DNA from: an uncultured Bacillota bacterium
GTDB taxonomy: Bacteria > Bacillota_I > Bacilli_A > ML615J-28 > CAG-313
DNA: 64,000 nucleotides
Direction: 5' to 3'
Assembly (NCBI GenBank): GCA_946611195.1
Contig: CAMODB010000001.1
Span: 33,122 to 97,121, forward strand
Part shown: positions 1 through 59,100 of the stretch, piece by piece
Layout: the number at the start of each line of letters is the position of its first letter
Position numbering within the stretch: the first letter of the stretch is position 1
Made by a program: the position numbers and the translations under genes
Notes under the pieces: generated by a model
Databases searched by the model: none
Told to the model about the DNA's origin: nothing
The model's input: the letters and a program-made list of their open reading frames with translations, nothing else

Positions 1-2846
1 ATTCTAATGAATCAAGTAAAGTATGGGAAGCTGTTAAAAATAATTACAAGCTTACCTATGTTCGTGAAAAATGGGCAAAAGAAGCTTATTGGAAACGTTA
101 TTTAGATAATCGTGAAGATGATTATCCATTCCCTCCAACTAATAAAGAAAGTTCAACTGATAGTATTGAAGCTTATTTCAAAGATAATTATAGTGGTAAA
201 ACTATTGGTTTCTTTGTTCCATTTACATCAGAAGCTAGCGCTTATGCTGCTATGGAAAAATATGGTGTAAATGTCAATAGTACTGTTTTAAGTACTTTTG
301 ATGGTTGGGTTAAAAACACTTATAATTACTATACTACTAAAGAACCAGCTAAAACTGATAAATTCAGTTTTGAAGAAGTATTAAATATCTTTATCAACAT
401 GTATAATGATAATTATGCTTATTTAAATGATGGTAATCCAGTTTTACCAAGTGATTGTTATGAAGAAGTTTTATTAAATAAACAAACTGCTTATAACGTT
501 GCGGAAGCAATTAAGAATGCTTTCTCTGAATCACATTATGGTATTTCTATTACTGTACCAACTACTGTTGAAGTAACAGGTCATGGTAATGCCGAAATTA
601 TTTGGACAGTATCTAATAGTACTTATGGTAAAGTAGAAAATAATGTTATCTCTGCTAATTTTGATGCCGTTGCTAGTGATGAAACTGAAATTAGTTTAAA
701 TCTATCTTTCAAAGTTCTCTTTGGTGATGAAGACAATGAAGAAAGTGTTACTAGCAGTCTTTCCATCGTTTTACAAGGTGAAAGAGATGAAAATGGTCAA
801 ATCAAAAATTCTGATACAGCAGTTACAAGTGTAAATGTTGCCTCAGTAGATCCATATTTCGGTCTTGTATTAAAAGATGAATATCTCGATGAAGATGCTG
901 AAACATTCCGTTTCATTTGGACTAAAGCTCAAGCTGAAGCTATTAATGCAACATTAGCTAATTATTTATCAGTTTCTTCAACTAATTTAGTTCTATCAGA
1001 AAACCCTGAAGAAATTTACAAAGCTTATACTGGTAAACCAGTAGCAATTGGTGATTATTATTATTTAATTATCAAATTAAAAGATGAAGCTCAACCTGAA
1101 TTATTTGCTAAAGACATCAATGGCGAAGTATCTGCTGATGCTAATGGTAAATATACAATTCTTGACCAAGCAACTTATGATGAAATCGTTGAAAAAAAGA
1201 AAGAAGCATTACTTACTGAAAATGCTGTAAATGAAATGATTCATACTAATCGTTATGAACATGGTTTAAAGATTTATGATGCTTATATCGAAGCTATTTA
1301 TGAATATCAATATAAGACATTCTATGAAACAACTTTATCATCAACAGATTATAATAAATATAAGACTACTAAGAAGAAACAAAAGACTTTACTTGCTGAA
1401 TTCAAAGTAGGTGATGATACTGTTAAATTCAATGTTCAAGATTTATTTGATCGTCTAGAAAAGAAATATGCCGCAACAGCCGTTGCAACATTCATTGAAA
1501 ACTATATCTTAGTTAATGATGAAAAATACAATAAAGTATATAATCCATATACTAATAAAGTATTAGATCAAGATGCTTATAAGAATTTATTAACAAGTGA
1601 ATTATCAACTTTAAAACAAAACTTCGAAGCTGATTACTTTACTTATTCATATCTATCTTATTATGGCTTTACTCCAAACTTCTCTCATAAATATGGTTGG
1701 CAAAAATTCATTAAAGATTACTTCAATGCTTATAGTGATCAAGAATTATTAGCTACTTCTTTCTATGGTGGATCTATTTATACTGATGCTTTACATGAAT
1801 ATACTTTAGATCAATATACTTTAGCTGATGTTAGAGCAAAGATGGAAGAAGCCTATAATAAATGGTTTGGTTTATCTGTAATTAATTTAATTGTTTCTAT
1901 TGATACAAATTATAATGCTGATTCATCTTCATCTTCTTCTGCTGATATTGCTATGGAAGAAAAAGATAATTGGACTGATGAACAAAAAGAATTAGCTAAA
2001 GAACTTGCAAGCTTAATGTTTGAAGTTGCTAAAGAAACAAATGGTGCTACTTTATCTGACCAAATGAATGCCTTAGTTACTTTATATAAAGATGCTCCAT
2101 ATTATTATGATGAAGCTGAATGGAATACAGCAAGATCTTCTAAGACATCTATTTACGATTACAATTACTTTGGTAAATATAAATTAGCTGGCTTAAATGT
2201 TAAATTTGAAACTGCAAATTCTTATGATTCATCTTCTTCAATCGTTGAAGAATTTAAAGATGCTTGTAGTGCTCTATGGGCAAAAGCTAATGATTTAAAT
2301 TTAGTTGGTACTACATTTGATCAACCATTATTCTGTGATGAACCATTCTTTACTGATTATGGTCTACATTATATTGCAGCACTTTCTGCAAATGAAAGAT
2401 TAGATTTACCAACTGATGATGAAGTTAAATTATATCGTGCTCATAAAGCTTTAGATGATGCAAAGAAAGCCGTAGAAACTGCGCAAACTAACATTGATAC
2501 TTATAGTAAGAATGGTTATAATACTTCTTCTTATCAAGCAACTAAAGCATTAAATGAAAAGAAAGTTGCAAGATATCAAGCAGAATGGGATGCATTACTT
2601 AAAGAATTAAATCTAAAGAGTGATTATACAATTCCAACTGATGTTCAAACTAAGATTGACAAGTGGTATACTAGTGCCCAAACTGATATTGAAGGTGGCA
2701 CATTAGTAACTAGATCATACATTGCTAAGATGCAATCAATTCTATCAAATATTAATTTTGATAGTAATGGTAAGACTAATAAGACTAATTTTGAAGAATT
2801 CTTAGGTCTATTAATCGAAGCATGTGATGATTCAGATGCTGAATAG
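1..2846 (+). CDS. 5'-truncated large secreted/surface protein (at least 947 aa visible); paralog of the next gene; contains a SurA_N/PrsA-N-like chaperone-type segment
   Basis: Frame 3 is open from nt 3 to the stop at 2844-2846, with no stop upstream of the listed ATG at 252, so the gene begins before the window. It shares motifs with the downstream ORF (KYGWQKFIKDYF vs SYGWENFMRDYLG; KVGDDTVKFNVQDLFDRL vs KVGDLTVTKENVYNRL). It has Ser-homopolymer linkers (SSSSSS) and a Tyr/Asp/Asn-rich composition. Confidence 0.55.
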   Translation, partial: SNESSKVWEAVKNNYKLTYVREKWAKEAYWKRYLDNREDDYPFPPTNKESSTDSIEAYFKDNYSGKTIGFFVPFTSEASAYAAMEKYGVNVNSTVLSTFDGWVKNTYNYYTTKEPAKTDKFSFEEVLNIFINMYNDNYAYLNDGNPVLPSDCYEEVLLNKQTAYNVAEAIKNAFSESHYGISITVPTTVEVTGHGNAEIIWTVSNSTYGKVENNVISANFDAVASDETEISLNLSFKVLFGDEDNEESVTSSLSIVLQGERDENGQIKNSDTAVTSVNVASVDPYFGLVLKDEYLDEDAETFRFIWTKAQAEAINATLANYLSVSSTNLVLSENPEEIYKAYTGKPVAIGDYYYLIIKLKDEAQPELFAKDINGEVSADANGKYTILDQATYDEIVEKKKEALLTENAVNEMIHTNRYEHGLKIYDAYIEAIYEYQYKTFYETTLSSTDYNKYKTTKKKQKTLLAEFKVGDDTVKFNVQDLFDRLEKKYAATAVATFIENYILVNDEKYNKVYNPYTNKVLDQDAYKNLLTSELSTLKQNFEADYFTYSYLSYYGFTPNFSHKYGWQKFIKDYFNAYSDQELLATSFYGGSIYTDALHEYTLDQYTLADVRAKMEEAYNKWFGLSVINLIVSIDTNYNADSSSSSSADIAMEEKDNWTDEQKELAKELASLMFEVAKETNGATLSDQMNALVTLYKDAPYYYDEAEWNTARSSKTSIYDYNYFGKYKLAGLNVKFETANSYDSSSSIVEEFKDACSALWAKANDLNLVGTTFDQPLFCDEPFFTDYGLHYIAALSANERLDLPTDDEVKLYRAHKALDDAKKAVETAQTNIDTYSKNGYNTSSYQATKALNEKKVARYQAEWDALLKELNLKSDYTIPTDVQTKIDKWYTSAQTDIEGGTLVTRSYIAKMQSILSNINFDSNGKTNKTNFEEFLGLLIEACDDSDAE

Positions 2847-2859
2847 GAGGAATAAGAAA

Positions 2860-5679
2860 ATGAAATTATTTAAAAGAATTTTACCTTTATTCTTATTAAT
2901 TCTTCTTTTTACAACTGTCGCAAGCTGTAAGAAGGATAATAAAACAAATTATTCTTATCCAAGTGAAGTTCCAACTTATACTAGTAAAGATACATTCCTT
3001 AAAGTAGGTGATTTAACAGTAACTAAAGAAAATGTTTATAATCGTCTTCTTAATAGTTATGGTGTTGAAACTCTTGAATTCTTACTTGATGATTATCTAT
3101 TAAAAGCTGAATTAACTAGTGAAGAACAAGCTGAATTCGAAAAATCTTTAAATAAACGTATCTATGGTGATAACTATAATGATATGAGTGATGAAGAAAA
3201 GGAAGAAGCTTTAGCAAAATTTGAAGAAAATTGTTTATCAACTGGTTTAAAAGTACTTGATTCTGAAAAGAATAATAAATTACATTATGAAAATTATTAT
3301 AAATTAGAATTCAAACGTGAATTAGCTACTGTTAAAGCTCTTAAGAAAGAAGCTGAAGATCAAAATGCGAAAGCTAAAGAAGATTCAAGTGTTGAAGCAA
3401 AATATGCTGAAAGTGATTATTTAACATTCTTTAATGGTAAGATTCACCCATTATATACAATGCAATTAGTTGTTTTCTCATCTTATGCAGAAGCTCTTGC
3501 TGCTCTTGAAAATGCTGGTGTTAATGATCTTAATGGTGAATGGAAAGATAGTAGTGATCATGTTTATACTAAAGATGAATTAGCAGCTATCTTTGATAAT
3601 CTTGCTACAGCTGCTTATGGTGAAGTAAAAGCTGATAAAGTTTATAAATATGCTGAACTTGCTAAATTATCCGCAACAGGTTCTACTGATACAACTATTG
3701 CTAACAAAGTAAGTAAACTTAATACAAGTGAACTTTCTACTAGTTATACTCATGCTCCTATTTCCTTTAGTGGAAAATGGTTCTTAGCTTTTGTTAAATC
3801 AACATCTGATGATTATTATTATGATAATGATGAAACTGTTAAATTTAATAAAGAAGTTATTAAAGAATATAACGCTGATGGAACTATCTCCAAACTTGAT
3901 GAAACTATTTATCCAACATTACTTGAATTATTAGTTAAAGAAGATATAAATGCTTCTAATACAGCTTATAAAAATAATACGGAAAAAGTTTTATTAAAAT
4001 TAAGACAAGATGCTGGTCTAGAAATCTTTAGTGAAGGTTTAGAAGTAGCATATAAAGCTAATTATGAAAATGTTTATTCATCACTTGGTATTACTGATTA
4101 TGATGCATTCAAAGCAACAACTAATACTTCTTCTACTGTTGTCGCAAAAATCAATGGTTTAGAAATTAATTTAGATGCTATGTATCAAGCTTTAACTGAT
4201 CGTTATGGTGTCTTATTATCACTATTATTTGTACAACAATATGCAGTTCTTGGAAGTGAATATAATAAAGTAATTAATTATTCAACTCTTGAAGTTCTTG
4301 ATCAAACTAAATATGCTGAATATGTAGCTACTGATTATACAGCTTATAAAGAAGCATTTGAAACTGGTAGTTATGAAGCTAATGGTTATCCTGCAAGCTA
4401 TGGTTGGGAAAACTTCATGCGTGATTATTTAGGTGTAACAAGTGAAAAAGAAATCGTTGTTGATTTCAGCAGTGACTTATATAATGATGTCTTAGATTTA
4501 TATACTAAAGCTCTTTATATGGCTGAATTAAGTGATGTAGAATTATATTTACCTGATGGTGGTGATGCATACTTCTTAAAATCAGCTAAATGGACTAAAG
4601 AATATAATGTTTTAGATAAAGCCTTAGTTAAAGAAGGTACTACTCCTACTTTAAGTCTTGCATATGAAGAAAAAGATATCGAAGGTGTAGCTAAGAAACA
4701 TGATACTGCTGGTAACGAAGTTGATTACAAAAAAGAAGAATATTATGGTCATTTCGTAATCACTTATACAAATCCAGAAGGTAATGAAGTTAAAGCTTTA
4801 ACTAATATTACAGTTGACCAAAGAGTAATGGAAACTTATGATGAAATCTATAATGCTTCCTTTACCGCAACTGTTTCTGGTTTCTATGCTTATTATGATG
4901 TCGATTTAGATGGTAAAGCTGATGATATCGAAGGTGAAGAAAATTTAGAAAAGAGAAATCTTGCTAAAGCCTTAACTGATGATATTTGGTATTATGCTTA
5001 TTCTTTATATCAAGATGATGTAGTAAATAAACAATATCCTCGTAAGACAGTTCTTGAATATATTCAAGCTGCTTTAAGAACATATTCTACTTCTACTGAT
5101 GCAATATGGACTAATTACAAAAAAGCTGGTTTAGTTCTTGCTACAGTATCAAGTGTATCTTACACAAGAACAACATCACAATCAGAAGAATTACTTGATG
5201 ATGTTAAAACTATGTGGGAAGAATTAAGAACTCTATCTTCTTCAGTAATGGGACAAACAATTGATCCAATTTATCGTTGGATTGAAAATGATGAAGTTAA
5301 GAATGTTAAAGCAATGGATATTGCAAATACTCATGAAGCTATTTTAAGTAATAATGCTTATTATCGTTTAGTAATTACTAAACCAACATCAATTACAGCT
5401 TATACTTATACTTCATCTACTCAAGAACAAAAACCTAATTATTATCTCTATACTCAATATCTATTATCTACAGATAAGAGAGAAACAACAATTTATTGTT
5501 CAAGTCAATTTACGAACTACTATAATCCTGCTATTTCTCAATTATCATCATCAGATATTGTTAATAAGAAAATAATGACTGATGCGAAAGAACTCCTTTC
5601 TAAAGTTGAATTCAGTTCAAATAATGATGCTAATAAAGATGTATTAACTAAATTAATTAATGCTTCTCTAGCAAAATAA
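2860..5679 (+). CDS. large lipoprotein (939 aa) with two SurA_N/PrsA-N-like segments; paralog of upstream gene
   Basis: AGGAGG at 2845-2850 sits 9 nt before ATG 2860. The N-terminus MKLFKRILPLFLLILLFTTVASCKK is a signal peptide with lipobox VASC. Two segments resemble the chaperone N-domain of PrsA/SurA (LKVGDLTVTKENVYNRLLNSYGVETLEFLLDDYLL and VVAKINGLEINLDAMYQALTDRYGVLLSLLFVQQY). The listed ORF start 2824 overlaps the upstream stop and is less likely. Confidence 0.6.
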   Translation: MKLFKRILPLFLLILLFTTVASCKKDNKTNYSYPSEVPTYTSKDTFLKVGDLTVTKENVYNRLLNSYGVETLEFLLDDYLLKAELTSEEQAEFEKSLNKRIYGDNYNDMSDEEKEEALAKFEENCLSTGLKVLDSEKNNKLHYENYYKLEFKRELATVKALKKEAEDQNAKAKEDSSVEAKYAESDYLTFFNGKIHPLYTMQLVVFSSYAEALAALENAGVNDLNGEWKDSSDHVYTKDELAAIFDNLATAAYGEVKADKVYKYAELAKLSATGSTDTTIANKVSKLNTSELSTSYTHAPISFSGKWFLAFVKSTSDDYYYDNDETVKFNKEVIKEYNADGTISKLDETIYPTLLELLVKEDINASNTAYKNNTEKVLLKLRQDAGLEIFSEGLEVAYKANYENVYSSLGITDYDAFKATTNTSSTVVAKINGLEINLDAMYQALTDRYGVLLSLLFVQQYAVLGSEYNKVINYSTLEVLDQTKYAEYVATDYTAYKEAFETGSYEANGYPASYGWENFMRDYLGVTSEKEIVVDFSSDLYNDVLDLYTKALYMAELSDVELYLPDGGDAYFLKSAKWTKEYNVLDKALVKEGTTPTLSLAYEEKDIEGVAKKHDTAGNEVDYKKEEYYGHFVITYTNPEGNEVKALTNITVDQRVMETYDEIYNASFTATVSGFYAYYDVDLDGKADDIEGEENLEKRNLAKALTDDIWYYAYSLYQDDVVNKQYPRKTVLEYIQAALRTYSTSTDAIWTNYKKAGLVLATVSSVSYTRTTSQSEELLDDVKTMWEELRTLSSSVMGQTIDPIYRWIENDEVKNVKAMDIANTHEAILSNNAYYRLVITKPTSITAYTYTSSTQEQKPNYYLYTQYLLSTDKRETTIYCSSQFTNYYNPAISQLSSSDIVNKKIMTDAKELLSKVEFSSNNDANKDVLTKLINASLAK

Positions 5680-6673: not shown

Positions 6674-7078
6674 TTATAAACTTAAGCGGGATAAAGCTCT
6701 TTTTAAAGATAATTCGGCTCTTTTAAGATCAATATTGGGATCATGCGAATTAATTCTTTCTTCAGCTCTTTGTTTACTTCTTTCGGCTCTTTCCCTATCG
6801 ATTTCATCTTTAGTTTCAAAGCTTTCTGCTAAGACTATCACTTCTTCTTTGGTGACATTTAATATACCACCACCGATTGATAAATCAATACTTTCTATTT
6901 TTCCTTCAATATTTTTTTTATAATTGAGATGGGAAATTTCAATAATAGATGTTAGTGGTAGATGATTAGCTAAGATACCTAAAGCTCCTGCTGATGTAAT
7001 TACATTTAATATATATGCTTCATCAGTTATCTTTTTACCATCGGGAGTAACAATCGTTAATTTGAAATTGGTTGCCAT
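6674..7078 (-). CDS. atpC: F1 ATP synthase epsilon subunit
   Basis: MATNFKLTIVTPDGKK is an epsilon-type N-terminus. The gene is last in the atp operon, directly after atpD. Confidence 0.9.
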   Translation of the reverse strand: MATNFKLTIVTPDGKKITDEAYILNVITSAGALGILANHLPLTSIIEISHLNYKKNIEGKIESIDLSIGGGILNVTKEEVIVLAESFETKDEIDRERAERSKQRAEERINSHDPNIDLKRAELSLKRALSRLSL

Positions 7079-8497
<1,419 letters not shown>

Positions 8498-9343
8498 CTA
8501 GGAATTGCTAGCGCCAGCTACAACTTCCGTAATTTCTTGGGTTATAGCTCCTTGTCTAGCCTTATTATATTCGATTCGTAATTTTTCTAATAATTCTTCC
8601 GCATTATCGGTTGCGCTATCCATAGCATTACGACGAGCGGCTTGTTCACATACACTAGCTTCAATTAAACGTCCATAAAGGAAAGTATTTAAATATTTAG
8701 GAATAATTAAGGCTAATACTTCTTCTTTACTTGGTTCAAATAAAACTTCTTGTTTAATATCATTAGTTTCTTTTTGTCCACTTAAAGGTAATAATTGATA
8801 TTCTCTTGGGACAAAAGTTAAAGAATTAACATATTCAGTAGAAATTAAATAGACTTTATTATATTTTCCACTAGCATATTCATTTCTTAAATCATAAACT
8901 AAATTTTGCACTTTTTGATAATCTAATTTATCTAAAAGTGTAACATATTCATCATTTAATTCGACATCTTCACGGCTATATTTAACAAAACCTTTCGTCC
9001 CAACGACTAAGACTTTATCATTCTTTTTGATAAGCGAATTAAGAAATTTAAATAAATTGTAATTATATCCTCCACATAAACCTAAAGAGGATGTTACAAC
9101 AACATAAAGATTAGAAGTAGCCTCATTATATTCTTTTAATTCTAAGATATCGGTTGGTCCTTCTTTATCACTACAGGAAGAAATAATATTATTCATTACA
9201 TTTAAATAAGAAACAATATTTTCCATTCGATCTTTCCATTTTTTAAGTTTTACTGTTGCGACAAGCTCCATCGCTTTAGTTATCTTTCTCGTGGAAGAAA
9301 TAGATTTAATTCTTCTTTTAGTATTAGTGAGACCTTGACTCAT
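8498..9343 (-). CDS. atpG: F1 ATP synthase gamma subunit
   Basis: 281 aa between atpA and atpD. The C-terminal ARQGAITQEITEVVAGA is the conserved gamma C-terminus. Confidence 0.9.
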   Translation of the reverse strand: MSQGLTNTKRRIKSISSTRKITKAMELVATVKLKKWKDRMENIVSYLNVMNNIISSCSDKEGPTDILELKEYNEATSNLYVVVTSSLGLCGGYNYNLFKFLNSLIKKNDKVLVVGTKGFVKYSREDVELNDEYVTLLDKLDYQKVQNLVYDLRNEYASGKYNKVYLISTEYVNSLTFVPREYQLLPLSGQKETNDIKQEVLFEPSKEEVLALIIPKYLNTFLYGRLIEASVCEQAARRNAMDSATDNAEELLEKLRIEYNKARQGAITQEITEVVAGASNS

Positions 9344-9367
9344 AGGCTAGCCTCCTTTCTTTAATAT

Positions 9368-10876
9368 TTATTGACAATAAGCTTCTTTATATTTATAAAT
9401 AGCTTCTTTTAATTGTTCTTCATTTTCTTTACTTAATACTTTAGTTTCTTTAATTTCATCTAAAGTAGCTTGATAATCTTTTTTAAGACTAATCATTAAG
9501 CCGTCAAGGAATGGTTTAATATCTTCAATCTTTAAATCATCCATTACTCGACTTTGAGCAGTAAAGATTTCTATTGTTTGTTCAACAAAGGTTTTAGGTT
9601 GATATTGATTTTGTTTTAATACTTCCATTAAGACATTACCATGAATTAAGATCTTCTTGGTTGCGTCATCAAGATCACTACCAAATTGTGCAAAAGCTTG
9701 TAATTCATGATAATTTGCAAGTTCGATCTTTAAGGATTTTGCAACACTCTTTACACATTTATATTGAGCAGCACTACCAACTCTACTTACTGATAAACCA
9801 GAATCAATGGCTGGTCTTTGTCCTGAATTAAATAATTCAGTTTGTAAGAAGATTTGTCCATCAGTAATCGAAATTACATTAGTTGGAATATAAGCAGTAA
9901 TATCACCAGCCTGTGTTTCAATGATAGGTAAGGCAGTAATTGAACCACCACCATATTCTTTTGATAAACGACAAGCTCTCTCTAAAAGTCTTGAATGTAG
10001 ATAGAAAACATCACCAGGATAAGCTTCACGTCCAGGAGAACGTTTAAGTAGAAGTGATAAGGTACGATAAGCAACCGCATGTTTACTTAAATCATCATAG
10101 ATAATAAGCACATCTTTACCTTGTTCCATCCATTCTTCAGCCATTGTTACCCCCGCATAAGGAGCAATATATTGTAATGGTGCAAGTTCACTAGCTGTAG
10201 CTGATACGACTGTCGTATAGCTCATAGCATCATGTTCTTTTAATTTTTCCACTAATTGAACTACGGTAGAATTCTTTTGACCGATTGCTACATAAACGCA
10301 AAGAACACCTTTATCTTTTTGATTAATAATTGTGTCTATCGCAATCGCTGTTTTACCTGTTTGACGGTCACCAATGATTAATTCTCTTTGACCACGACCA
10401 ATTGGAATCATCGCATCTATAGCTTTAATACCAGTTTCTAGTGGTACATCAACGGATTTTCTAGTCATTACTCCAGGAGCTATTCTTTCAATTGGACGTG
10501 ACTTTGTTGTTTTAATTTCTCCTAAGCCATCAATTGGTTGACCTAAAGCATTAACAACACGACCAAGTAATGCATCACCAACGGGAACTTCTACTACTTT
10601 ATGGGTTCTTTGAACTAAATCGCCTTCTTCAATTAAAGTATCATTACCGAAAAGAATTGCACCAACGCTATCTTCATTTAAGTTCATCGCCATACCATAT
10701 ACGCCATGAGGGAATAATAATAATTCTGATAACATTACTTTATCCAAGCCATAAACAGACGCAATACCATCACCAACAGTAACAACACTACCGACGTCAT
10801 TAGATTCTACTTTATGGGCATAATTCTTAATTTGCTCTTTAATTAAACTAGCAATTTCATTTGATTTGATAGCCAT
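9368..10876 (-). CDS. atpA: F1 ATP synthase alpha subunit
   Basis: [18 protein letters not shown] Walker A; 502 aa. Confidence 0.97.
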
Positions 10877-10878
10877 TT

Positions 10879-11412
10879 TTAAGCACCACCCTTTACTAAA
10901 GATTCCTTTAATTTTTCTACTTTGTTCTTAATGGAACCATCAAAGATTTTATCTTCGACTATTACTTTTACTCCACCAATAAGTTTTTTATCAATTACAT
11001 TCTCTAGTTCTACTTTTGATTGTAATCTTTTTTCAATACCTGATTCAATTTTTTGAATTTCTTCTTCACTAAGTAATCTTGTTGAATAAACAATACCATC
11101 TTTGATTTGTAATCTTTCATTACAAATTTTAATAAATTCATTAAAGATTTTAATGATTTGGTTACTACGAGAATTTCTTACAATGACTTTAATAAAATTC
11201 TTTATATAATCATCATAAATAACTATTTTATCGATAATTTGTTCTTTCTCATTAAATTCAATAAATGCTGAATTGAGAATTTTAATTATTTCTTCATTTT
11301 CTAAGAAAGCTTTTCTTAATTCTTTTACATTTTGTCGATATTCAGCAATTGCACCTTTTTCGCTTGCTAGAGAAAGGAGAGCATTAGCATAACGATTAGC
11401 TAAAGAATCCAT
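10879..11412 (-). CDS. atpH: ATP synthase delta (OSCP) subunit
   Basis: 177 aa between atpF and atpA. The N-terminus [16 protein letters not shown] is the OSCP signature. Confidence 0.85.
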
Positions 11413-11981
11413 TATTTATTCTCCACTTTTTCTTCAATTAAATCATCAACAAAATCATCAAGAAGATGTTTATCATCAGTTTCTGTTACTTCTCTATTTA
11501 AAATATTTTTCGTTGCTTCCATCGCAATATCCACAACATCATCATGCATTTCTTTTAAAGCTTTATTCTTTTCAAGTTCAAGATCTTCTTGAGCTTGCAT
11601 TCTCTTCGCCGCAATATCTTGATTAGTTTCTTCTAGAATCGCACTGCGTTCTTTTTCGGCTTCAATTTTTGCATTTTGAATAATTTGGACTGCTTCTACT
11701 TGACTAGAACGTAAATTAGATTTGCTTTCTTCTAAATTACGGCTAGCTTCTTCATTCTTCTCTCCTGCTTCTTTTAAATTAGATTCAATGTATTCTTTTC
11801 TTTTTTGTAAGAATTTTGCAATTGGTTTATATGCAAATTTAATAACAATTAGAATCATGATTATAAAAGCAATTAATTGAACAAGAAAAGCCCAAAAATT
11901 AGGAATGACTTTACTGATGAAATCTTCCTGTTTAGGTTGTTGTAATTCATTTGTAAGTAAAATTATCGATAATATTTTCAT
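11412..11981 (-). CDS. atpF: Fo ATP synthase subunit b
   Basis: An N-terminal TM helix is followed by a long charged coiled coil. The likely start is the ATG at 11981 (MKILSII...), with GAGGAT lying 7 nt upstream on the minus strand. The listed ORF start 11996 is a TTG. Confidence 0.85.
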   Translation of the reverse strand: MKILSIILLTNELQQPKQEDFISKVIPNFWAFLVQLIAFIIMILIVIKFAYKPIAKFLQKRKEYIESNLKEAGEKNEEASRNLEESKSNLRSSQVEAVQIIQNAKIEAEKERSAILEETNQDIAAKRMQAQEDLELEKNKALKEMHDDVVDIAMEATKNILNREVTETDDKHLLDDFVDDLIEEKVENK

Positions 11982-12008
11982 AATTACCATCCTCAAAGAT
12001 AAATAAAA

Positions 12009-12263
12009 TTATAAGAACAAAATTAAAATAGCGATTAATAAACCATAAATACCAGTTGTTTCAGCTAAGGCAGCACCAAGAATCATATTAGTTCTAAGTT
12101 TACCAGCCATTTCTGGATTACGTGCCATACCTTCTAAAGCTTTACCAATTAGATAACCTTCACCAATACCAGAACCAGCACCAGTTAATACCGCAATACC
12201 AGCACCGATAGCAGCTGTACCTTCAATAGCTAAGAAAGTGATAAGTGCATGTAAAAAGCTCAT
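12009..12263 (-). CDS. atpE: Fo ATP synthase subunit c
   Basis: 84-aa two-helix proteolipid with a GAGIAVLTGAGSGIGEG glycine zipper and a conserved carboxylate helix 2 (ALAETTGIYGLL). Confidence 0.92.
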   Translation of the reverse strand: MSFLHALITFLAIEGTAAIGAGIAVLTGAGSGIGEGYLIGKALEGMARNPEMAGKLRTNMILGAALAETTGIYGLLIAILILFL

Positions 12264-12313
12264 ATGTCCTCCTTTCTAATTAATTAAATTAAATAATATC
12301 TTAAAATTTAAAA

Positions 12314-13057
12314 TTATGCTAATTCCGGATCCGGATCTTCTTGGGCAATCTGAATCATCGTCAGCATTATAAAGATCAATGTTTGAATAACTCCTGAAAA
12401 GACATCAAAATAAGCATGAAGAACAGGAGTAATTAATGGTGGTAAAATAATTGATGCAGCTCCACCAGGAATGAAAGAGCCAAAGATCATATTAGATAAA
12501 CCACCTAAAGCCCAATAAACAATCGCCATTAAAGTAAATCCTGATAACGCATTACCAAAAATACGTAAGGAAATACTAAGTAATGGTGCCCACATTGATA
12601 ATAAATTGATAGGTAACATTATTGGGGCTGGGTCAATATAACGTTTGAAATAGCGCCATTTATTTGCTCTAACTGCCGTCGCATGAATAAGTACAAAAGT
12701 ACATAGACCCATTGAAAAAGTATTACCAAGATTAGTCATCGGTCCTGGTAAACCCATTAAAGAAACAAAGAAACTAAGACCAATATAACTAGCTAGTCCT
12801 AAAACATAACCGCCAAAGCCTTTATATTTCTTTCCCATTAAATCATCAACCATACCATCAACTTTTTCGACAATTAAACACATTATCATCGCAAAGCCTT
12901 TTTCAGGTTTGGTTGGATCAAGATGTCTAAATACAAAATAAATAACAAAGGATAAAATAATGATTAATCCTATCACGAAATAGGACATAAGATTATCACC
13001 TGTAAAATACTTAAAATCGAATTTAAAGAAATTCTCAAAAGCACTACCGATTAACAT
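12314..13057 (-). CDS. atpB: Fo ATP synthase subunit a
   Basis: Polytopic membrane protein with the conserved SLSLRIFGNALSG (Arg-containing) motif. The exact start is uncertain. Confidence 0.9.
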   Translation of the reverse strand: MLIGSAFENFFKFDFKYFTGDNLMSYFVIGLIIILSFVIYFVFRHLDPTKPEKGFAMIMCLIVEKVDGMVDDLMGKKYKGFGGYVLGLASYIGLSFFVSLMGLPGPMTNLGNTFSMGLCTFVLIHATAVRANKWRYFKRYIDPAPIMLPINLLSMWAPLLSISLRIFGNALSGFTLMAIVYWALGGLSNMIFGSFIPGGAASIILPPLITPVLHAYFDVFSGVIQTLIFIMLTMIQIAQEDPDPELA

Positions 13058-13435
13058 TTAATTCTTAATGATCATCCAAGGTATTGCTACTACAAAATAA
13101 GGTATTGCGCCGATGATCACAAACAAATATCTTGTTTTTGTAATTACTTCACCCATAGTAAAGCGTACTAAAAGACAAGATAACACGAGGCCGACAATCA
13201 TACAACCATAACGTAGTAACATATACGTAACCATTACTCCTTTCCCACCTTCCGGAGTTATACTTTGATGTGTTTTAATTAATAATAAGAGATTAATAAA
13301 ACCAAAAACAGTACATATTAAAACACATAAAGGTAGAACCCATTCCTTAAAAAGTAAGGATAAAAAGCTTAATAAAACTAATCCTAAACAAATAAGTAAA
13401 TAAGTAAGGATTATTTTTTTCTTATTGAGTTCCAA
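13058..13435 (-). CDS. small membrane protein at head of atp operon (AtpI/AtpZ-like)
   Basis: 125 aa with 3-4 TM helices, immediately upstream of atpB. The call rests on position; I see no diagnostic motif. Confidence 0.5.
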   Translation of the reverse strand: MELNKKKIILTYLLICLGLVLLSFLSLLFKEWVLPLCVLICTVFGFINLLLLIKTHQSITPEGGKGVMVTYMLLRYGCMIVGLVLSCLLVRFTMGEVITKTRYLFVIIGAIPYFVVAIPWMIIKN

Positions 13436-13493: not shown

Positions 13494-14432
13494 TTAATCA
13501 ATATCGGGAATATATAAGCATTTTCGATTTAAACTACTAATAGGAGCGGTTTGACCACCTTTTTTACCTTTAACAACTTCAGGCGTAATCGCCGCCATCT
13601 TTGAATCGGTTAAATCGATTAAATGAAGAGCATAAGCTTCCATCATACCTGGTTCTTTCGGACTACCAAATTCTAATTCACCATGGTGAGACGCAATTAA
13701 ATGTTCTAAAGCTTTTACTTCTTCACTATCACTGACATCTAATTCACTAGCTGCCACCGCAACCATTTGTAACCCTATTACAATATGACCTAGAAGATTA
13801 CCATCTTCAGTATAAGTAGGAGCTTTCGTTCCTGATAATTCTTTAGTTTTACCGATATCATGTAAAATTATACCTGCATATAATAAATTCTTATTCATAC
13901 CAGGATAAATATTAAGTAATGTATCGGCAAGTCTTAGCATTGAATAAGTATGATAAGCTAAACCATTAACAAAATTATGATGCATGCTGACAGCAGCTGG
14001 ATAAGTAAAATATTTATTTTTATTTTCTTTAATTAATTTACATACTAAATCATATAAGATTTTATTTTCGATTTTTTTAGTGTAATTAGCAATTCCTCTA
14101 ACTAAATCTTCTTCTGATAAAGGAGCGGTTTTAATGAATTCTTTAACATCTACTTCATCATCACTTATTTTACGAATGGCTTTAATTACATATTGTGGTT
14201 TACCATTAAATTCATTGATATGGCCTTCAAAATAATACACTTCTCCAGCTGTAACTTCATTATATTCTACTAAATTACAATTCCAAACACGACTATCGAC
14301 ACTTTGATCACCATCGCTTAAAGTTAGACTATAATAACTGGCATTACCTTGGGCAAATCTTTTTTGCATATTTTCCACTAAGGCATAGAATTTAACATCA
14401 TCATTAATATTAAAATCCTTAAATTTATTCAT
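13494..14432 (-). CDS. yhaM: 3'-5' exoribonuclease YhaM (OB-fold + HD domain)
   Basis: The N-terminal OB-fold region is followed by an HD domain (HxxH...ILHDIGK...HH), 312 aa. This architecture and length match YhaM/Cbf1. Confidence 0.8.
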   Translation of the reverse strand: MNKFKDFNINDDVKFYALVENMQKRFAQGNASYYSLTLSDGDQSVDSRVWNCNLVEYNEVTAGEVYYFEGHINEFNGKPQYVIKAIRKISDDEVDVKEFIKTAPLSEEDLVRGIANYTKKIENKILYDLVCKLIKENKNKYFTYPAAVSMHHNFVNGLAYHTYSMLRLADTLLNIYPGMNKNLLYAGIILHDIGKTKELSGTKAPTYTEDGNLLGHIVIGLQMVAVAASELDVSDSEEVKALEHLIASHHGELEFGSPKEPGMMEAYALHLIDLTDSKMAAITPEVVKGKKGGQTAPISSLNRKCLYIPDID

Positions 14433-15886
14433 TAAATTAATCTCCTTTCTTCTAAGATTTGATATTGACTAGTTTGTAATAAGAAATCATGAGCATGTTG
14501 TTCGGCTTCTTTTTTTAAATCATTTCTTTCCGCCGGACTAAGACTATATAATTCTTTTTCATCATTTAAATAAACTTTAATTAAGAAATCTAATTCTCGA
14601 TGATATTTTTCAAGTAGCTTTGTAACGGCATCTTCATCATCATCTCTAATCGGTTCTTTTTCTTCATAATTAAAGATTTCTTTCATTTCTTGATCAATTT
14701 TTAAAGCTTCTTCTCTTAAGACCTTCGGATAATTTTTAATTTCTTGATTAATAACTTTTTCTAAAAGTAAATTTTCCACAATGCGAATCTTAATATTTCT
14801 TTGACCATTAAATAATTTAATAAGTTCTAATTCCGAAATATTTAATTCTCTAATGGAATTAATAACCGCATTCTTTTTAAGTTTATGAATCAATTTAGCT
14901 TGACTCTTATAATCTTTTTTATAAGTAAGAGCTAATTTATCACAACTTAATAATTTATCAACCCCAATATTATAAACCATCATTGGTGTTACTTCACTAT
15001 GACTAATTAATTGGGTAATCGTAATTGTTTCCGTAATTTCTTCTAATTCTAATTTATTGATTAAATAGGCATCAGGAATTAAACCAATGATTAAATATAA
15101 TAAGCTATATCTTTCAATTTCATTTAATTTATCATAACTATTTAATAATTTAATAACAAAAGAATCAAAATCCGGAACAGCTTTAAATAGATGTTCTTTA
15201 TTAATTAATAATAAGGTTTCTTTCGCATATCTACCTTTTAAGATTTGTTTTAAATAAACAATGGAATCTTTTAATTCTATTTTATTTAAACCAGCTTGCA
15301 TCTTATACATTGCTTTTAAAGTCTTCTTTTCAATCATAAAACCATAATGTGCATGTAAGACTAGGGCTTCAAATATATTAGCTGGATTAATTTCAAAAAC
15401 AGATTTAGTTTTATCAATAGCTTTAATAATATGTTCATCGATACTTAAAATAGAATTAAAAATATCAATTATTTCATAATTAGGCGACAACGCCATTGCT
15501 TTAAGAGTAAAGATTTTTGATTGAAGCACTTGTATTAATTTTTTATTATAATGCTTATCTAAATTTTCATTTAAAGCAATTGGTAATTTAGGATCATCAA
15601 AGAAGATAAAAGAAAAACTACCTTCCGGATCATTATATATTACTTGTTCTTTCTTATTTTTAATAATCGAAGGAAAGATGGCAATTAATTCATTAAAATT
15701 AGCTTTTGTAACAATTTCAATTTCATCAATATCTTGACATAAATAAAAATTAGTAACCGCATTTGACACAATATAAGAATCATAACCACGATTAATTAAG
15801 ATTTTTAATATCTCAATACCACGTTTTAAATAATTTAAACCTTTAGCTTTACTGTCACTAAATTTCTTTAAATATACATTGTCCAT
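14432..15886 (-). CDS. divergent Pol-beta-superfamily nucleotidyltransferase, CCA-adding/poly(A)-polymerase head-like with a degenerate catalytic motif
   Basis: The N-terminal region aligns by eye with the CCA-enzyme head, but the catalytic motif is degenerate. Its stop TAA overlaps the yhaM ATG (TAATG), indicating translational coupling. The motif alignment is detailed in the findings. Confidence 0.5.
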   Translation of the reverse strand: MDNVYLKKFSDSKAKGLNYLKRGIEILKILINRGYDSYIVSNAVTNFYLCQDIDEIEIVTKANFNELIAIFPSIIKNKKEQVIYNDPEGSFSFIFFDDPKLPIALNENLDKHYNKKLIQVLQSKIFTLKAMALSPNYEIIDIFNSILSIDEHIIKAIDKTKSVFEINPANIFEALVLHAHYGFMIEKKTLKAMYKMQAGLNKIELKDSIVYLKQILKGRYAKETLLLINKEHLFKAVPDFDSFVIKLLNSYDKLNEIERYSLLYLIIGLIPDAYLINKLELEEITETITITQLISHSEVTPMMVYNIGVDKLLSCDKLALTYKKDYKSQAKLIHKLKKNAVINSIRELNISELELIKLFNGQRNIKIRIVENLLLEKVINQEIKNYPKVLREEALKIDQEMKEIFNYEEKEPIRDDDEDAVTKLLEKYHRELDFLIKVYLNDEKELYSLSPAERNDLKKEAEQHAHDFLLQTSQYQILEERRLI

Positions 15887-15953
15887 ATTTTTCCTCCCTT
15901 CTCTTTTTTATTATTTTGTAATAATTCAAAAAATATTAATGCTTTGTAATAAT

Positions 15954-15980
15954 TCAAAAAGCGTTACAGCTTTTTGAATT
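15954..15980 (-). terminator. probable ychF terminator
   Basis: TTCAAAAAGC and GCTTTTTGAA form a 10-bp inverted repeat around a 6-nt loop just downstream of the ychF stop. The U-tract lies partly inside the stem. Confidence 0.4.
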
Positions 15981-15985
15981 ATATA

Positions 15986-17083
15986 TTATATATTAAACCT
16001 AAATAACATTATATCGCCATCTTGAACGACATAATCTTTTCCTTCAAGTCTAACCTTACCTGCTTCTTTTACCTTTAATGGTGTTCCATATTCCATTAAA
16101 TCATCATAAGAATAAGTTTCTGCTTTGATAAATCCTTTTTCAAAATCAGTATGAATAATACCAGCACATTGAGGAGCTTTCATACCATTTTTAAAAGTCC
16201 AAGCCCGGCATTCTTTTTCCCCAGCTGTAAAGAAAGTACGTAAACCTAATAATTCATAACTTTCTCTAATAACTTTATCTAAGCCGCTTTCTTTAAGTCC
16301 CATTTCTTCTAAGAACATCATTCTTTCTTCATCATCAAGTTGAGATAATTCTTCTTCTATTTTTGCGGAAATAACGACTACTTTCGCATTATCGCCTTTA
16401 GCATATTCTTTTACTTTTTTAACATAATCATTATCTTGATTGATATCATCTTCTGATACATTACAAACATAAAGAACAGGTTTTAAAGTTAAGAATTGAT
16501 AATTCTTAATAAAGAATCTTTCTTCTTCACTTAAATCGACACTACGAGCTGGAAGACCTTTTTCAAAAGCTTCTTTTAATTTTTTTAAGATATCATATTC
16601 AAAACTAGCATCTTTATCTGTTTTAAGAATAGCTTTCTTTTCAATTTTGGGAATTCTATTTTCAACTACTTCTAAATCAGCTAAGACTAATTCTAAATTG
16701 ACAGTTTCAATATCCTCAATAGGATCGATATGACCAGATACATGAGTAATATTATCATCGTCGAAGCAACGTACGACATGACATATTGCGTCAACATTAC
16801 GAATATTACTTAAGAATTGGTTTCCTAAGCCTTCACCTTTGGAAGCTCCTTTAACTAGTCCCGCAATATCGGTAAAGGAAAATGATGTTTTAACAATACT
16901 TTTTGGATGAATAATATTACAAATATTATCTAATCTTTTATCATTTACTTCGACAACCCCCACATTAGGTTCAATTGTTGCGAAAGGGAAATTAGCCATG
17001 TAAGCTCCCGCTTTTGTTATCGCATTAAATAAAGTTGATTTACCAACATTAGGTAAGCCAACTATTCCTGCTGTTAAACTCAT
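15986..17083 (-). CDS. ychF: ribosome-binding ATPase YchF (Obg family)
   Basis: GIVGLPNVGKSTLFNAIT G1 motif, TGS domain at the C-terminus, 365 aa. Confidence 0.95.
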   Translation of the reverse strand: MSLTAGIVGLPNVGKSTLFNAITKAGAYMANFPFATIEPNVGVVEVNDKRLDNICNIIHPKSIVKTSFSFTDIAGLVKGASKGEGLGNQFLSNIRNVDAICHVVRCFDDDNITHVSGHIDPIEDIETVNLELVLADLEVVENRIPKIEKKAILKTDKDASFEYDILKKLKEAFEKGLPARSVDLSEEERFFIKNYQFLTLKPVLYVCNVSEDDINQDNDYVKKVKEYAKGDNAKVVVISAKIEEELSQLDDEERMMFLEEMGLKESGLDKVIRESYELLGLRTFFTAGEKECRAWTFKNGMKAPQCAGIIHTDFEKGFIKAETYSYDDLMEYGTPLKVKEAGKVRLEGKDYVVQDGDIMLFRFNI

Positions 17084-56145: not shown

Positions 56146-59100
56146 CTACTTAATACTTAGATAATCATCATTATCATTGATTTGATTTTTTTCTTTCATG
56201 TATTCTACAACTTCATTAAGACGGGTTTCAATATTTGATCCAACCCTTTGATAACCGAGTTGTTTAGCAATCGCAAGATATAAATTTTCTTTAGAAATTG
56301 AAACATTATTCTTAATTAAGATGTACATGCCACTAGCGATTTCCGCATTACTGATTAAAGAAATATCACGTTCTTCTTTTTCTTTTCGAGGAATACGCAT
56401 TTTAATTTCTTTATCTTTATCTGTAATATAATAATCTTCAACTTTAAAAATACGATCGGGATTTTTTCTTAAATAGATTCGTAGTAACTTCTTATATTCT
56501 TCATCAGCTACTCTTCTTCTAAATAATTCTAAACATTTTTTCGCAATTAAATCGAAAGTGATTGGTCCTTCTTTATCAATTAAATTGAATAATTCATTCA
56601 TGACAAGTCCATTTGGATCAACCTTATAAGGGACATATTTATCAAAAACAATTTCTTGTAAATCTTCAAAATCGGTAAATAAATTATGAACTTCTTTCTT
56701 ATCAACATTGATAAATTCATCTTTATCGATTTCTTGATTTGTATCTTTAAGACCTTTACCACTCGCTATTTTCGCAATAAATTGTAATAATTTCTTCTTT
56801 TCAATCTCTTTATTTTTAAACCAATCGATACTCCAAATTCTATAATATGACCAACCATAATTCTTTAAGACTTGTTCTCTTAAACGATTTCTTTCACTAG
56901 TAGTTTTACTATTATAATAATTAGGTCCATCTAATTCGATAGCGAGAAGATATTCATCTTTATCTTTAACTGCTAAATCAATCTTAAAATTAGATCTACC
57001 AATATTAGTATCAACGGTATATCCTTTTTCAACAAGAACATTCTTAATGTCAGCAATTAAATAATCATATTCTTTTTCAACACTTGTTTCTTTATTGTCA
57101 ATTACATAATCATTTTCTAAATAAGCTAAATAATTGCGGAGTGATTTTGCGCCATGCATAACTTCACTAGAAATCATCGAACTCTTCATCGATGTAACAA
57201 TAATATTTTGACATTTAGCTCTTGTTACCGCAACATTTAATCTTCTTTCGCCACCTTCTTTATTAAGAGGTCCGAAATTATTTAAGAAACGACCATTAGT
57301 ATCTCTACCATAGGCAAGAGAGAAAATAATTACATCGCGTTCATCACCTTGTACAGTTTCTAAGTTTTTAATAAAGAAATTAGCTTTATCAAGTAATTCA
57401 TTCTTCTTATTAAGATTTAATTTATTAATCTTTTCTTCAATTAAATCAGCTTGACTAATCGAAAAAGCAACAACTCCAAGTGTCCGATCTGGATATTTTT
57501 TAATTGTTTCAAAGACTAATTCGACAACTTTATCAGCTTCAATTTCATTGATTCTTCTCTTACGATCAAAGATACCATTTTCCATATAAATTAGTTTATT
57601 ACCAAAACCTTCTTTATGAGGATTATTTTCTGGGAAAGTGATTAATCGATTATTATAGAATTCTTTATTGGAAAATTCAATTAAGCTTTCAGCTCGACTA
57701 CGATAATGCCAATTTAAATAGCATGAATTAAAACTGGCATTTGCAATATCAAGAATTGATTCAAATCCACCTGTTAAATCGGTACCATCTTCATCATATT
57801 CATCATCTTCATAAGTAGATATAAAGAAATCTGTTGGTGGCATTTGTTTACTATCTCCAACAATGATAACTTGTTTTGATCGGTAAATAGAACCAATCGC
57901 ATCTTCAGGGAAAACTTGCGAAGCTTCATCAAAGATAACTAAATCAAAATTAGAATTATCACTTGTAAGATAAGTACTAACACTTAATGGTGACATCAAG
58001 AAACATGGTTTAATTTCTTGAATTACTTTGAAATCATCTCTTAATAAAAGACGTAAAGGTTTAATCTTCGTCTTCTTTGACATTTCCTTAATGATGTCAC
58101 TCAATTGACTACCACGAACTGCGGTTTGCGTTTGCGGTAGATTGTTTGATAGATAAGATGTTACTAACGCAATAGACGCATTAATTTTTAAAGTATCATC
58201 TTTCTTAAATTCTTTTACTTCTTCATCTAAATTAATACGACTGACATCTTTTAAAACTTTATTATTATTTAAAACATGAGTTGTCCATTGTAAATAGAAT
58301 AAATAAGCAAAATTAAGGGTAAAATCAACTTTATCAATATTATAATTAATACCTCTATTTATATAATCTACTAAATCATAAACAATTAATTCATCATATA
58401 ATTTATTAAAATTAACATAGTTTTCTACTAAATCAAAATCCGCAATACATTTTTCTAGGCGATCAAATAGACTTCCTAATTCCATATGTGCAATATCAAA
58501 TTGTTTTTCATCAAAGACTTTAATTAAATAATCTTTAGAATCTCTTTCTTTTTTCGTATCATTATAGAAATTAATAAATTCGATACAGCGATTACGAATT
58601 TCCGTTAAATTATCATTATTTTTTGACGCAAGATATTGATAATTAGTTGGGAATGCTTCATATAAATTACTAAGTTCTGTTTCTAATTTCTTATAATTGA
58701 AATTAGCTTTTAATTCTATTTCTATTTCTTCGGCAATTTTTTGTTTTAATTTATCTAATTCAATTTGTAAATTTTGTTTCTTTTTACCATCATTAAGTAG
58801 ATTTACTAAAGAAGCATAATCAATTTTTTGTTTAGGATTCTTTTGATAAGACATCAATTGTTTCTTTCTTAAACGATAATTCTTTTTTAAGAAACGAAGT
58901 TTAGTAGCATAATGTTCACTAAATTCTTTTGTTAACGCATTGAAATCATTCTCATAAATCTCCAGACGATAAACATCACCAATTCTCTTATAAGCCTCAT
59001 CATAAGCTTCTTTCGCATTATTATAATTTCTAATTAAACTAATGATATCTTTTAAATGTTCTTTATTAAACAGATTCTTAGAGATAACACTTAAATTAAC

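Follow-up and report, generated by a model that had tools for sequence, protein, structure and literature searches.

A catalytically degenerate homolog of the CCA-adding enzyme coupled to yhaM in uncultured Bacilli

Introduction

Can bacteria retain the scaffold of a tRNA CCA-adding enzyme after its catalytic center has decayed, and if so, for what? We know of no work on CCA-adding enzymes, which are near-universal, that treats them other than as catalysts. The question is raised by a 64,000-nucleotide stretch of DNA from an uncultured Bacillota bacterium (contig CAMODB010000001.1 of assembly GCA_946611195.1, positions 33,122 to 97,121), hereafter the window. One of its genes encodes a 484-residue protein and ends within the start codon of yhaM, the gene for a 3'-5' exonuclease. 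An initial reading of the letters alone, referred to below as the original prediction, described the protein as a CCA-enzyme-like nucleotidyltransferase (NTase) with a degenerate catalytic motif: either a neofunctionalized or inactive scaffold acting with the exonuclease in RNA 3'-end surveillance or tRNA repair, or a highly divergent true cca. We examined the gene, its relatives and its surroundings, including 16 kb of flanking sequence, on both sides, taken from the 185-kb scaffold SHIW14-1_SAMN02144231-S008_METAG-scaffold_83 (ENA metagenome assembly ERZ28612947). We consider it fairly probable that the 484-residue protein is a pseudoenzyme that arose in situ from the long-form cca of its clade and has been kept for a non-catalytic role.

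Results

The 484-residue protein is a full-length homolog of class II CCA-adding enzymes

The protein is indeed homologous to CCA-adding enzymes, over the full length of the enzyme. The NCBIfam model for CCA tRNA nucleotidyltransferase, PRK13299, matched the protein over model positions 7-388 of 396 (E=1.1e-30) with 107 bits, below its cut-off of 290 bits. The three Pfam domain types that the original prediction proposed to look for were all found in the correct order, each under its cut-off (PolyA_pol, 15 versus 23 bits; PolyA_pol_RNAbd, 18.7 versus 22 bits; tRNA_NucTran2_2, 22.3 versus 27 bits, at residues 281-393). A profile of the window protein and 16 relatives matched the Geobacillus stearothermophilus enzyme 1MIV (E=1.2e-29). 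An AlphaFold model computed on the family alignment (mean predicted local distance difference test score 85.9) was matched by Foldseek to 1MIV over 401 columns (E=2.4e-16), followed by other class II CCA-adding, A-adding and poly(A) enzymes. From these profile, Pfam, PDB and fold matches it follows that the head, neck, body and tail domains are all present, as in the four-domain fold of about 395 residues of class II CCA-adding enzymes. The segment aligned in the original prediction, ILINRGYDSYIVSNAVTNFYLCQDIDEIEIVTKANFNELIAIF, corresponds to residues 29-71, and the protein is indeed about 90 residues longer than short CCA enzymes of 370-410 residues.

All five catalytic motifs are degenerate

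Three independent alignments agreed in placing S41-N42-A43-V44-T45-N46 at the position of motif A, GGxVRD, and E55-I56-E57 at that of the metal-binding DxD, bearing out both replacements noted from the raw sequence. The losses go beyond these two. The third carboxylate, which in active enzymes is the glutamate of the FEVTTFR strand, is S92; the ribose-recognition motif RRD is S123-K124-I125; and the EDxxR motif, which templates CTP and ATP, is I166-N167-P-A-N170 (Table 1). Pol beta superfamily polymerases are non-functional without these carboxylates.

To place these substitutions in their family, we collected relatives. A protein search returned 17 proteins of 484-486 residues, one of them identical to the window protein and the others 43-63% identical, and a scan of 1.84 billion representatives added further proteins of this kind together with a gradient of related groups. 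Five motifs were read in 154 aligned sequences, which fall into four groups. D1, the family of the window protein, comprises 22-23 sequences of 480-491 residues (one of 450 residues) in which the five motifs are degenerate. Group L (421-566 residues) has all five intact, with GG.VRD, DID, RRD and DP.R..R invariant. D2 proteins (mostly about 470-660 residues) have partly or wholly degenerate motifs, and S comprises the ordinary short enzymes (363-412 residues), in nearly all of which the five motifs are intact.

Across D1 all five motifs are degenerate, and the substitutes differ between members: DxD, for example, is replaced by E-x-E, T-x-E, S-x-T, H-x-Q or E-x-K. Nine columns (window residues 46, 55, 57, 92, 120, 125, 141, 166 and 167) hold an acidic residue in 94-100% of L and in 95% or more of S sequences; the corresponding D1 values are 14, 23, 64, 5, 0, 5, 73, 18 and 23%, and none of the nine reaches 90%. 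By motif, the GGxVRD aspartate column (14% in D1) is acidic in 100% of L and 95% of S, the two DxD columns (23% and 64%) in 100% of L and S, the third carboxylate (5%) in 94-100% of L and 100% of S, and the RRD aspartate (5%) in 100% of both. The E, D and R of EDxxR are retained in 18, 23 and 5% of D1 and in 100% of L and S. D1 has also lost most of the arginines in RRD and EDxxR. Because the substitutes vary between relatives, there is no alternative active site common to the lineage, and since the carboxylates and the nucleotide-binding and templating residues have all been replaced, the window protein is, as judged from its alignment, almost certainly incapable of CCA addition. These results support the inactive-scaffold half of the original prediction and speak against its other half, a highly divergent true cca: five motifs are gone, not two, and the replacements, far from forming one active-site variant shared by all relatives, differ among the 22-23 members.

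Could the protein nonetheless be a divergent but active CCA-adding enzyme, the sole cca of its genome, working with Glu55, Glu57 and other substituted residues? It does carry E-x-E at DxD, it retains the full fold, it occupies the position where the lineage has its active cca, and no other cca was found in the 64-kb window or the 16 kb of flanks. The E-x-E, however, is not common to its relatives, which have T, S, H, L or Q at the first position and, besides E, also Q, T, K or V at the second. Nor does D1 keep the glycine pair, the third carboxylate, RRD or EDxxR; no catalytic acidic column is conserved at 90% or above, and other domains have overtaken the head in conservation (see below). PRK13299 scores are 98-130 bits in D1 against 240-275 bits in L and 342 bits in one short enzyme; D2 proteins score 254-278 bits. 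We therefore regard an active enzyme as extremely unlikely.

Position and relatives indicate descent in place from an active enzyme

D1 proteins were found in eight GTDB species, all represented by metagenome-assembled genomes, from rumen, goat, deer, chicken and human gut. The contigs of these genomes have the prefixes ONHH01, CAZIQF01, CAKONV01, JAGBDV01 (assembly GCA_017937305.1), SVBG01, JAFQFT01, JAZOLP01 and JAZSIL01. Where NCBI names a D1 or D2 protein, the name is "hypothetical protein" of a "Bacilli bacterium" metagenome-assembled genome. D1 was monophyletic in 100 of 100 neighbor-joining bootstraps, and long forms were split from short forms in 95 of 100. Profile comparison of D1 with L by hhalign gave 100% probability over 484 columns, tail included.

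The genomic context of three L proteins encoded on long contigs was examined, and their genes occupy the same slot as the window gene, between ychF and yhaM. In two of these loci the order is tuf, tatD, an HtrA-like protease gene, a penicillin-binding protein gene, a membrane protein gene, ychF, the CCA gene and yhaM, with the last two overlapping by 1 nt; the third has the penicillin-binding protein gene, ychF, the CCA gene and yhaM in common with the window. Identity between the window and the L loci is 72-79% for ychF, 47-63% for yhaM and 26-28% for the NTase; within D1 the respective values are 81-88%, 63-68% and 42-64%. On these comparisons the window protein is best described as the positional ortholog of the clade's active cca and not as an additional paralog that joined yhaM, and the D1 NTase is diverging faster than its neighbors. 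The original prediction had noted the extra length of about 90 residues and the coupling to yhaM. Both are present, but they are also found in the catalytically canonical L enzymes of the same slot, and are therefore ancestral traits of the lineage; only the catalytic decay is new.

The canonical L enzymes P0182, P0207, P0212 and P0025 have PRK13299 scores that fall under the NCBI equivalog cut-off, and they were unnamed where checked. Annotation based on that cut-off would therefore not name them CCA enzymes, and genomes of the long-form clade may appear in such annotation to lack cca.

D2 is a larger second group of long CCA-like proteins from other uncultured Bacilli (proteins P0045-P0155; locus L022:2380-5008), with a coiled-coil-like region and an acidic terminus ending in EEN or EED. 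Its motifs range from near-intact (GGVVRS, RRD and EDPIR present, the first Asp of DxD gone) to fully degenerate, and long forms may have lost catalysis on more than one occasion. A metagenome scan with the D2 alignment used a pattern that proved too general: of 80 loci, only L022 was a true D2 locus.

The gene is translationally coupled to an apparently intact yhaM

The downstream gene had been called yhaM, and its product aligned with the solved YhaM structure 9h3f over residues 9-310 (E=1.1e-63), with the catalytic histidines and HD pair conserved (HHNF..AYH, ILHDIGK, LLGH, SHHG). NCBIfam PRK13480 matched with E=1.2e-82 and 277.5 bits, short of its equivalog cut-off of 460; among Pfam domains, HD scored 40.9 bits (cut-off 22) and the OB-fold tRNA_anti-codon 23.5 bits (cut-off 27). 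The gene thus encodes a divergent full-length YhaM, apparently intact and active.

The overlap of the NTase stop with the yhaM start, TAATG, was read in the sequence as previously described. It recurs in 11 of 13 related junctions and is therefore not due to chance; at the exceptions, the genes abut without overlap (L011, group L) or overlap by 11 nt (the D2 locus L022). Among L junctions, TAATG is present in L007 and L009, and the Shine-Dalgarno sequence lies within the last codons. In the D1 and L loci read, GAAAGAGG or its equivalent AAAGGGG is embedded in the codons for ER[GR][LI]I, so that the terminal E-R-G/R codons (GAA AGA GGN, or AGG AGA) are themselves the Shine-Dalgarno sequence of yhaM. 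Part of the C-terminal conservation is consequently imposed at the nucleotide level and does not argue for a docking peptide; the C-terminal ER[GR]LI, considered as such a peptide, was downgraded for this reason.

In every D1, L and D2 locus whose contig continues, yhaM lies immediately 3' of the NTase gene. It is the only neighbor common to the three groups. By comparison, yhaM was near none of the ordinary CCA genes in 79 metagenome loci, many of which are probably not from Firmicutes. The overlap and embedded ribosome-binding site are expected to link production of the NTase-like protein to that of YhaM. As the same coupling is seen with the active enzyme, coupling alone is no sign of a new joint function; the joint 3'-end surveillance with YhaM that the original prediction proposed is one that we infer from this conserved operon coupling and from nothing else.

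D1 genes are under purifying selection, with constraint shifted away from the head

The ratio of nonsynonymous to synonymous substitution rates (dN/dS) for the D1 gene was 0.16-0.19 in pairs with unsaturated dS (0.87-1.0), compared with 0.04-0.06 for ychF and 0.08-0.11 for yhaM. The reading frame is intact and near-constant in length (480-491 residues) over the eight GTDB species. By these measures the D1 gene is maintained by purifying selection.

The distribution of constraint also differs from that of active enzymes. Mean pairwise identity in D1 rises from 0.42 in the head to 0.48 in the body, 0.53 in the tail and 0.59 in the C-terminal extension. The respective head, body and tail values are 0.52, 0.28 and 0.30 in L, and 0.47, 0.17 and 0.28 in S. 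As far as identity reflects constraint, the profile in D1 is thus reversed, favoring body, tail and extension over the head, and the body and tail form the tRNA-binding half of CCA enzymes. Eight near-invariant basic residues in the D1 body and tail (K246, K335, K338, R346, R363, K366, K377 and R391) are specific to the group, the same positions being mostly not basic in L or S. Other invariant stretches, VTPMMVYNIG and ERSIxVKII.NLLLEKVIN, lie far from the yhaM junction.

These data bear on whether the gene is a functionless relic, its frame held open only because translation of yhaM needs ribosomes delivered through an overlapping upstream frame with an embedded Shine-Dalgarno sequence. The placement of that sequence within the last five NTase codons, the conserved TAATG and the faster evolution of the NTase gene relative to both neighbors are what such a relic would show. 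However, selection for an open frame alone predicts a dN/dS near 1 and free length, neither of which was observed, and it does not predict identities of 0.48-0.59 in body, tail and extension with many invariant residues remote from the junction. A relic is highly improbable.

The acidic extension is shared by active and degenerate forms

The extension has a net charge of about -8 and a pI of 4.7 in D1, with net charges of -13 in L and -12 in D2. AlphaFold predicts helices at residues 418-440, 451-470 and 473-480. By hhalign it is homologous to the tail of the active long-form enzymes, and D1 and L have a common C-terminal end, ...Y.IL.ERG[IL]I. The linker is longer and more variable in L (475-566 residues) than in D1, and identity among L tails in this region is 25%, compared with 59% in D1. 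A profile of the extension gave no meaningful match in PDB or Pfam. Its acidity makes RNA binding by the extension itself unlikely; binding of a protein, or mimicry or occlusion of nucleic acid, is more plausible.

The neck (window residues 151-240) has a mean net charge of +11.6 in L, +13.2 in D2, +5.5 in D1 and +2.4 in short CCA enzymes, and the acidic extension could pair with a basic neck surface.

An extension of this kind, without a known match, would also suit a neofunctionalized scaffold unrelated to YhaM or tRNA 3' ends, such as a sensor or chaperone of some other RNA, or an acidic-tail adaptor to a ribosomal component or to YchF. The gene for the latter protein is itself a conserved neighbor in D1 and L, and YhaM has reported roles elsewhere in single-stranded DNA processing during DNA uptake (PMC12107432) and in mRNA trimming (PMC11347170). 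Against such a scaffold, yhaM alone accompanies all of D1, L and D2, ychF not being upstream in the D2 locus, and the strongest constraint falls on the domains by which CCA enzymes bind tRNA. We consider this alternative unlikely.

No second cca or tRNA gene was found near the locus

A six-frame search of the 64-kb window for GG.VRD...DxD and RRDF[TS] revealed no second cca, and family scans of about 32 open reading frames in the window (30 of them outside the finding) recognized housekeeping genes only; the 16 kb of flanking scaffold likewise contained no other cca. No tRNA gene was found in the window by ARAGORN or Rfam, in the flanks, or in any D1, L or D2 locus scanned. The roughly 80 kb available from the window organism (window 1-64000, L012 and L102) contain no tRNA or other Rfam-recognized RNA gene at all.

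RNase Z was considered as an indirect sign of tRNAs lacking an encoded CCA. The candidate, a 310-residue metallo-beta-lactamase-fold protein encoded near yhaM in locus L001, is not RNase Z by NCBIfam, and it was set aside.

Genomic surroundings of the locus

The window is AT-rich (about 28% GC). In each D1 and L locus ychF is the gene directly 5' of the one for the NTase, with 72-88% identity to the window ychF, and the spacer between the two genes is only about 15-40 nt in relatives, compared with 99 nt in the window. The spacer hairpin is AT-rich and has no match in Rfam.

Table 1. Features of the NTase-yhaM locus in the window.
Feature	Residues	Position	Strand	Basis or remarks
ychF, ribosome-associated GTPase/ATPase		15986..17083	-	365-residue open reading frame; orthologs with Pfam MMR_HSR1/YchF-GTPase_C
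ychF-NTase spacer, 99 nt		15887..15985	-	14-bp hairpin 15949-15982; two copies of TTTTTGAATTATTACAAA; Shine-Dalgarno GGGAGG
D1 protein, catalytically degenerate long-form CCA-adding-enzyme homolog	484 in total	14432..15886	-	open reading frame, profiles, fold, alignments
SNAVTN in place of motif A GGxVRD	41-46	15749..15766	-	alignments
E-I-E in place of metal-binding DxD	55-57	15716..15724	-	alignments
S-K-I in place of motif B RRD (ribose recognition)	123-125	15512..15520	-	alignments
I-N-P-A-N in place of motif D EDxxR (nucleotide templating)	166-170	15377..15391	-	alignments
Body and tail domains	241-395	14702..15166	-	tRNA-binding half of CCA enzymes; with the extension, best-conserved part of D1
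Acidic C-terminal extension	396-484	14435..14701	-	short linker and helical tail domain of about 65 residues
yhaM Shine-Dalgarno, AAAGGAGA		14441..14448	-	within last NTase codons (E-R-R), 8 nt 5' of yhaM ATG
TAATG stop/start overlap		14430..14434	-	NTase TAA 14434-14432; yhaM ATG 14432-14430; one A common to both
yhaM, OB-fold and HD-domain 3'-5' exonuclease, apparently intact	312 in total	13494..14432	-	NCBIfam, Pfam and PDB matches

Next after yhaM in the window is an ATP synthase operon (6674-13435; atpI-like, B, E, F, H, A, G, D and C), which separates yhaM from two large genes. It is not at that position in the D1 loci L001, L015, L017 and L018, where a metallo-beta-lactamase-fold gene is found instead, in some of them together with two TMEM164-like genes. 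The two large genes (window 1-5679; L102:6715-12820) encode proteins of 1090 and 939 residues, neither with a Pfam match. The open reading frame at 252-2846 is the 3' part of the former gene, which extends past the left end of the window; the latter follows it, with its true start at 2860, behind AGGAGG. The pair is kept in all D1 relatives, a few kb 3' of yhaM and on the opposite strand, at 40-52% identity.

Elsewhere in the window, a 1523-residue protein (56146-60717), encoded next to a MerR-family gene, combines DUF4011, AAA_11/AAA_12 (Upf1-like helicase) and MTES_1575 nuclease-like domains and is possibly a defense or repair helicase-nuclease. A 233-residue P-loop protein without a Pfam match is encoded at 62077-62778; past the right end of the window (L012:10912-14150) the genes that come next encode an AAA_14/DUF4143 protein, an S24-like peptidase, PqqD and NTP_transf_5, a combination that resembles a peptide-modification cluster of the type that makes ribosomally synthesized and post-translationally modified peptides.

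Discussion

Variable loss of catalytic residues, together with an intact reading frame under purifying selection across species, is the pattern of a pseudoenzyme. From the conservation of body, tail and extension and the coupling to yhaM we infer a non-catalytic function, which is probably tRNA binding, exercised with YhaM. In the simplest history, the single cca of the clade would have gained the acidic extension and become coupled to yhaM; later, on the stem of D1, catalysis would have been lost, and a phase of rapid protein evolution would have been followed by settling under new constraints. The D1 protein would then bind tRNA or tRNA-like 3' ends without modifying them, and would work with YhaM either by presenting 3' trailers for trimming or by protecting the mature end against excessive trimming. 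Among the sister L lineages, the active enzyme and YhaM may form a trim-and-rebuild module, of which D1 would keep only the binding and trimming half. Such an arrangement would require tRNA genes that encode CCA, or another CCA-adding enzyme elsewhere in the genome.

Binding of tRNA 3' regions by the D1 protein, with modulation of YhaM, is plausible because of what is known of their relatives. In B. subtilis, YhaM can do part of the work of missing tRNA and rRNA processing enzymes, and this hexameric trimmer of low processivity takes 1-3 nt off RNA 3' ends (PMC11347170); CCA enzymes, for their part, tag defective tRNAs for decay (PMC12320835). A more specific proposal is that D1 is a non-catalytic specificity subunit of YhaM, docking tRNA by its elbow and acceptor stem as a ruler or shield, with CCA addition given up and CCA encoded by all tRNA genes. 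We put this forward tentatively, as a somewhat doubtful but conceivable refinement. If true, a nuclease that nibbles 3' ends in general would become a precise machine for tRNA 3'-end maturation or quality control, and the clade-wide coupling of cca with yhaM would point to tRNA 3' ends as the native YhaM substrate.

Several observations weigh against a pseudoenzyme that binds tRNA with YhaM. Traces of the active site persist in D1: 64% of members still have E at the second DxD position, the GGxVRD arginine is likewise kept in 64%, and 73% have K or R at one RRD arginine. The acidic extension is unlikely to bind RNA itself, the ER[GR]LI end owes part of its conservation to the embedded yhaM Shine-Dalgarno sequence, not to protein function, and the operon coupling exists with the active enzyme as well. 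The tree is a neighbor-joining tree only, and its branching among D1, L and D2 is weakly supported, D1 and L grouping in 59 of 100 bootstraps. Finally, the cca and tRNA searches span about 80 kb of the window organism and, for tRNA genes, the related loci.

The D1 protein differs from the known systems to which it is closest. It shares fold and whole-length homology with class II CCA-adding enzymes (1MIV; PRK13299; PolyA_pol, PolyA_pol_RNAbd and tRNA_NucTran2_2), from which it is set apart by the missing catalytic and nucleotide-selecting motifs, scores far under the curated cut-offs, the extra acidic extension of 90 residues and conservation concentrated in body and tail and not in the head. 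Another is group L (for example P0182, P0207 and P0212) of sister uncultured Bacilli, which has the same slot, the Shine-Dalgarno sequence in the last codons and a homologous acidic extension, and in which the motifs lost from D1 are invariant. The split CC-adding and A-adding tRNA nucleotidyltransferases also belong to class II and have a narrowed range of activities, yet they are catalytically active and differ only in the nucleotides they add (PMC7014341), whereas D1 has lost the catalytic core. Nematode mitochondrial CCA-adding enzymes are C-terminally lengthened like D1; in PMC12013499 they are described as active, with an extension needed for interaction with armless tRNAs. The extension of D1, L and D2 differs from the one described there in being acidic (net -8 to -13) and common to active and inactive forms. 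The window yhaM product, by its alignment, is a full-length and apparently active member of the YhaM/Cbf1 exonucleases (PDB 9h3f, 9o7t).

In the literature we found no paper that places yhaM in an operon with cca or a CCA-like gene. The two YhaM studies cited above (PMC11347170 and PMC12107432) make no mention of a nucleotidyltransferase, the four papers found to name both YhaM and the CCA-adding enzyme treat other subjects, and a full-text search found none pairing "tRNA nucleotidyltransferase" with "pseudoenzyme". As far as sequence comparison can tell, what is new here is the catalytic decay of a CCA-enzyme scaffold; the extension and the yhaM coupling were already ancestral.

The active long form, the degenerate D1 and the partly degenerate D2, all with one partner gene, constitute a natural series in which non-catalytic functions of the CCA scaffold can be compared. 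The tight and conserved coupling of cca with yhaM also offers a concrete, testable idea of what YhaM does in the cell, a protein with several differing reported roles. If D1 genomes do lack CCA-adding activity, these would be gut bacteria of free-living size (a description based on contigs with the active long form, which reach about 1.3 Mb) that rely wholly on genome-encoded CCA, which would constrain their means of repairing tRNA 3' ends.

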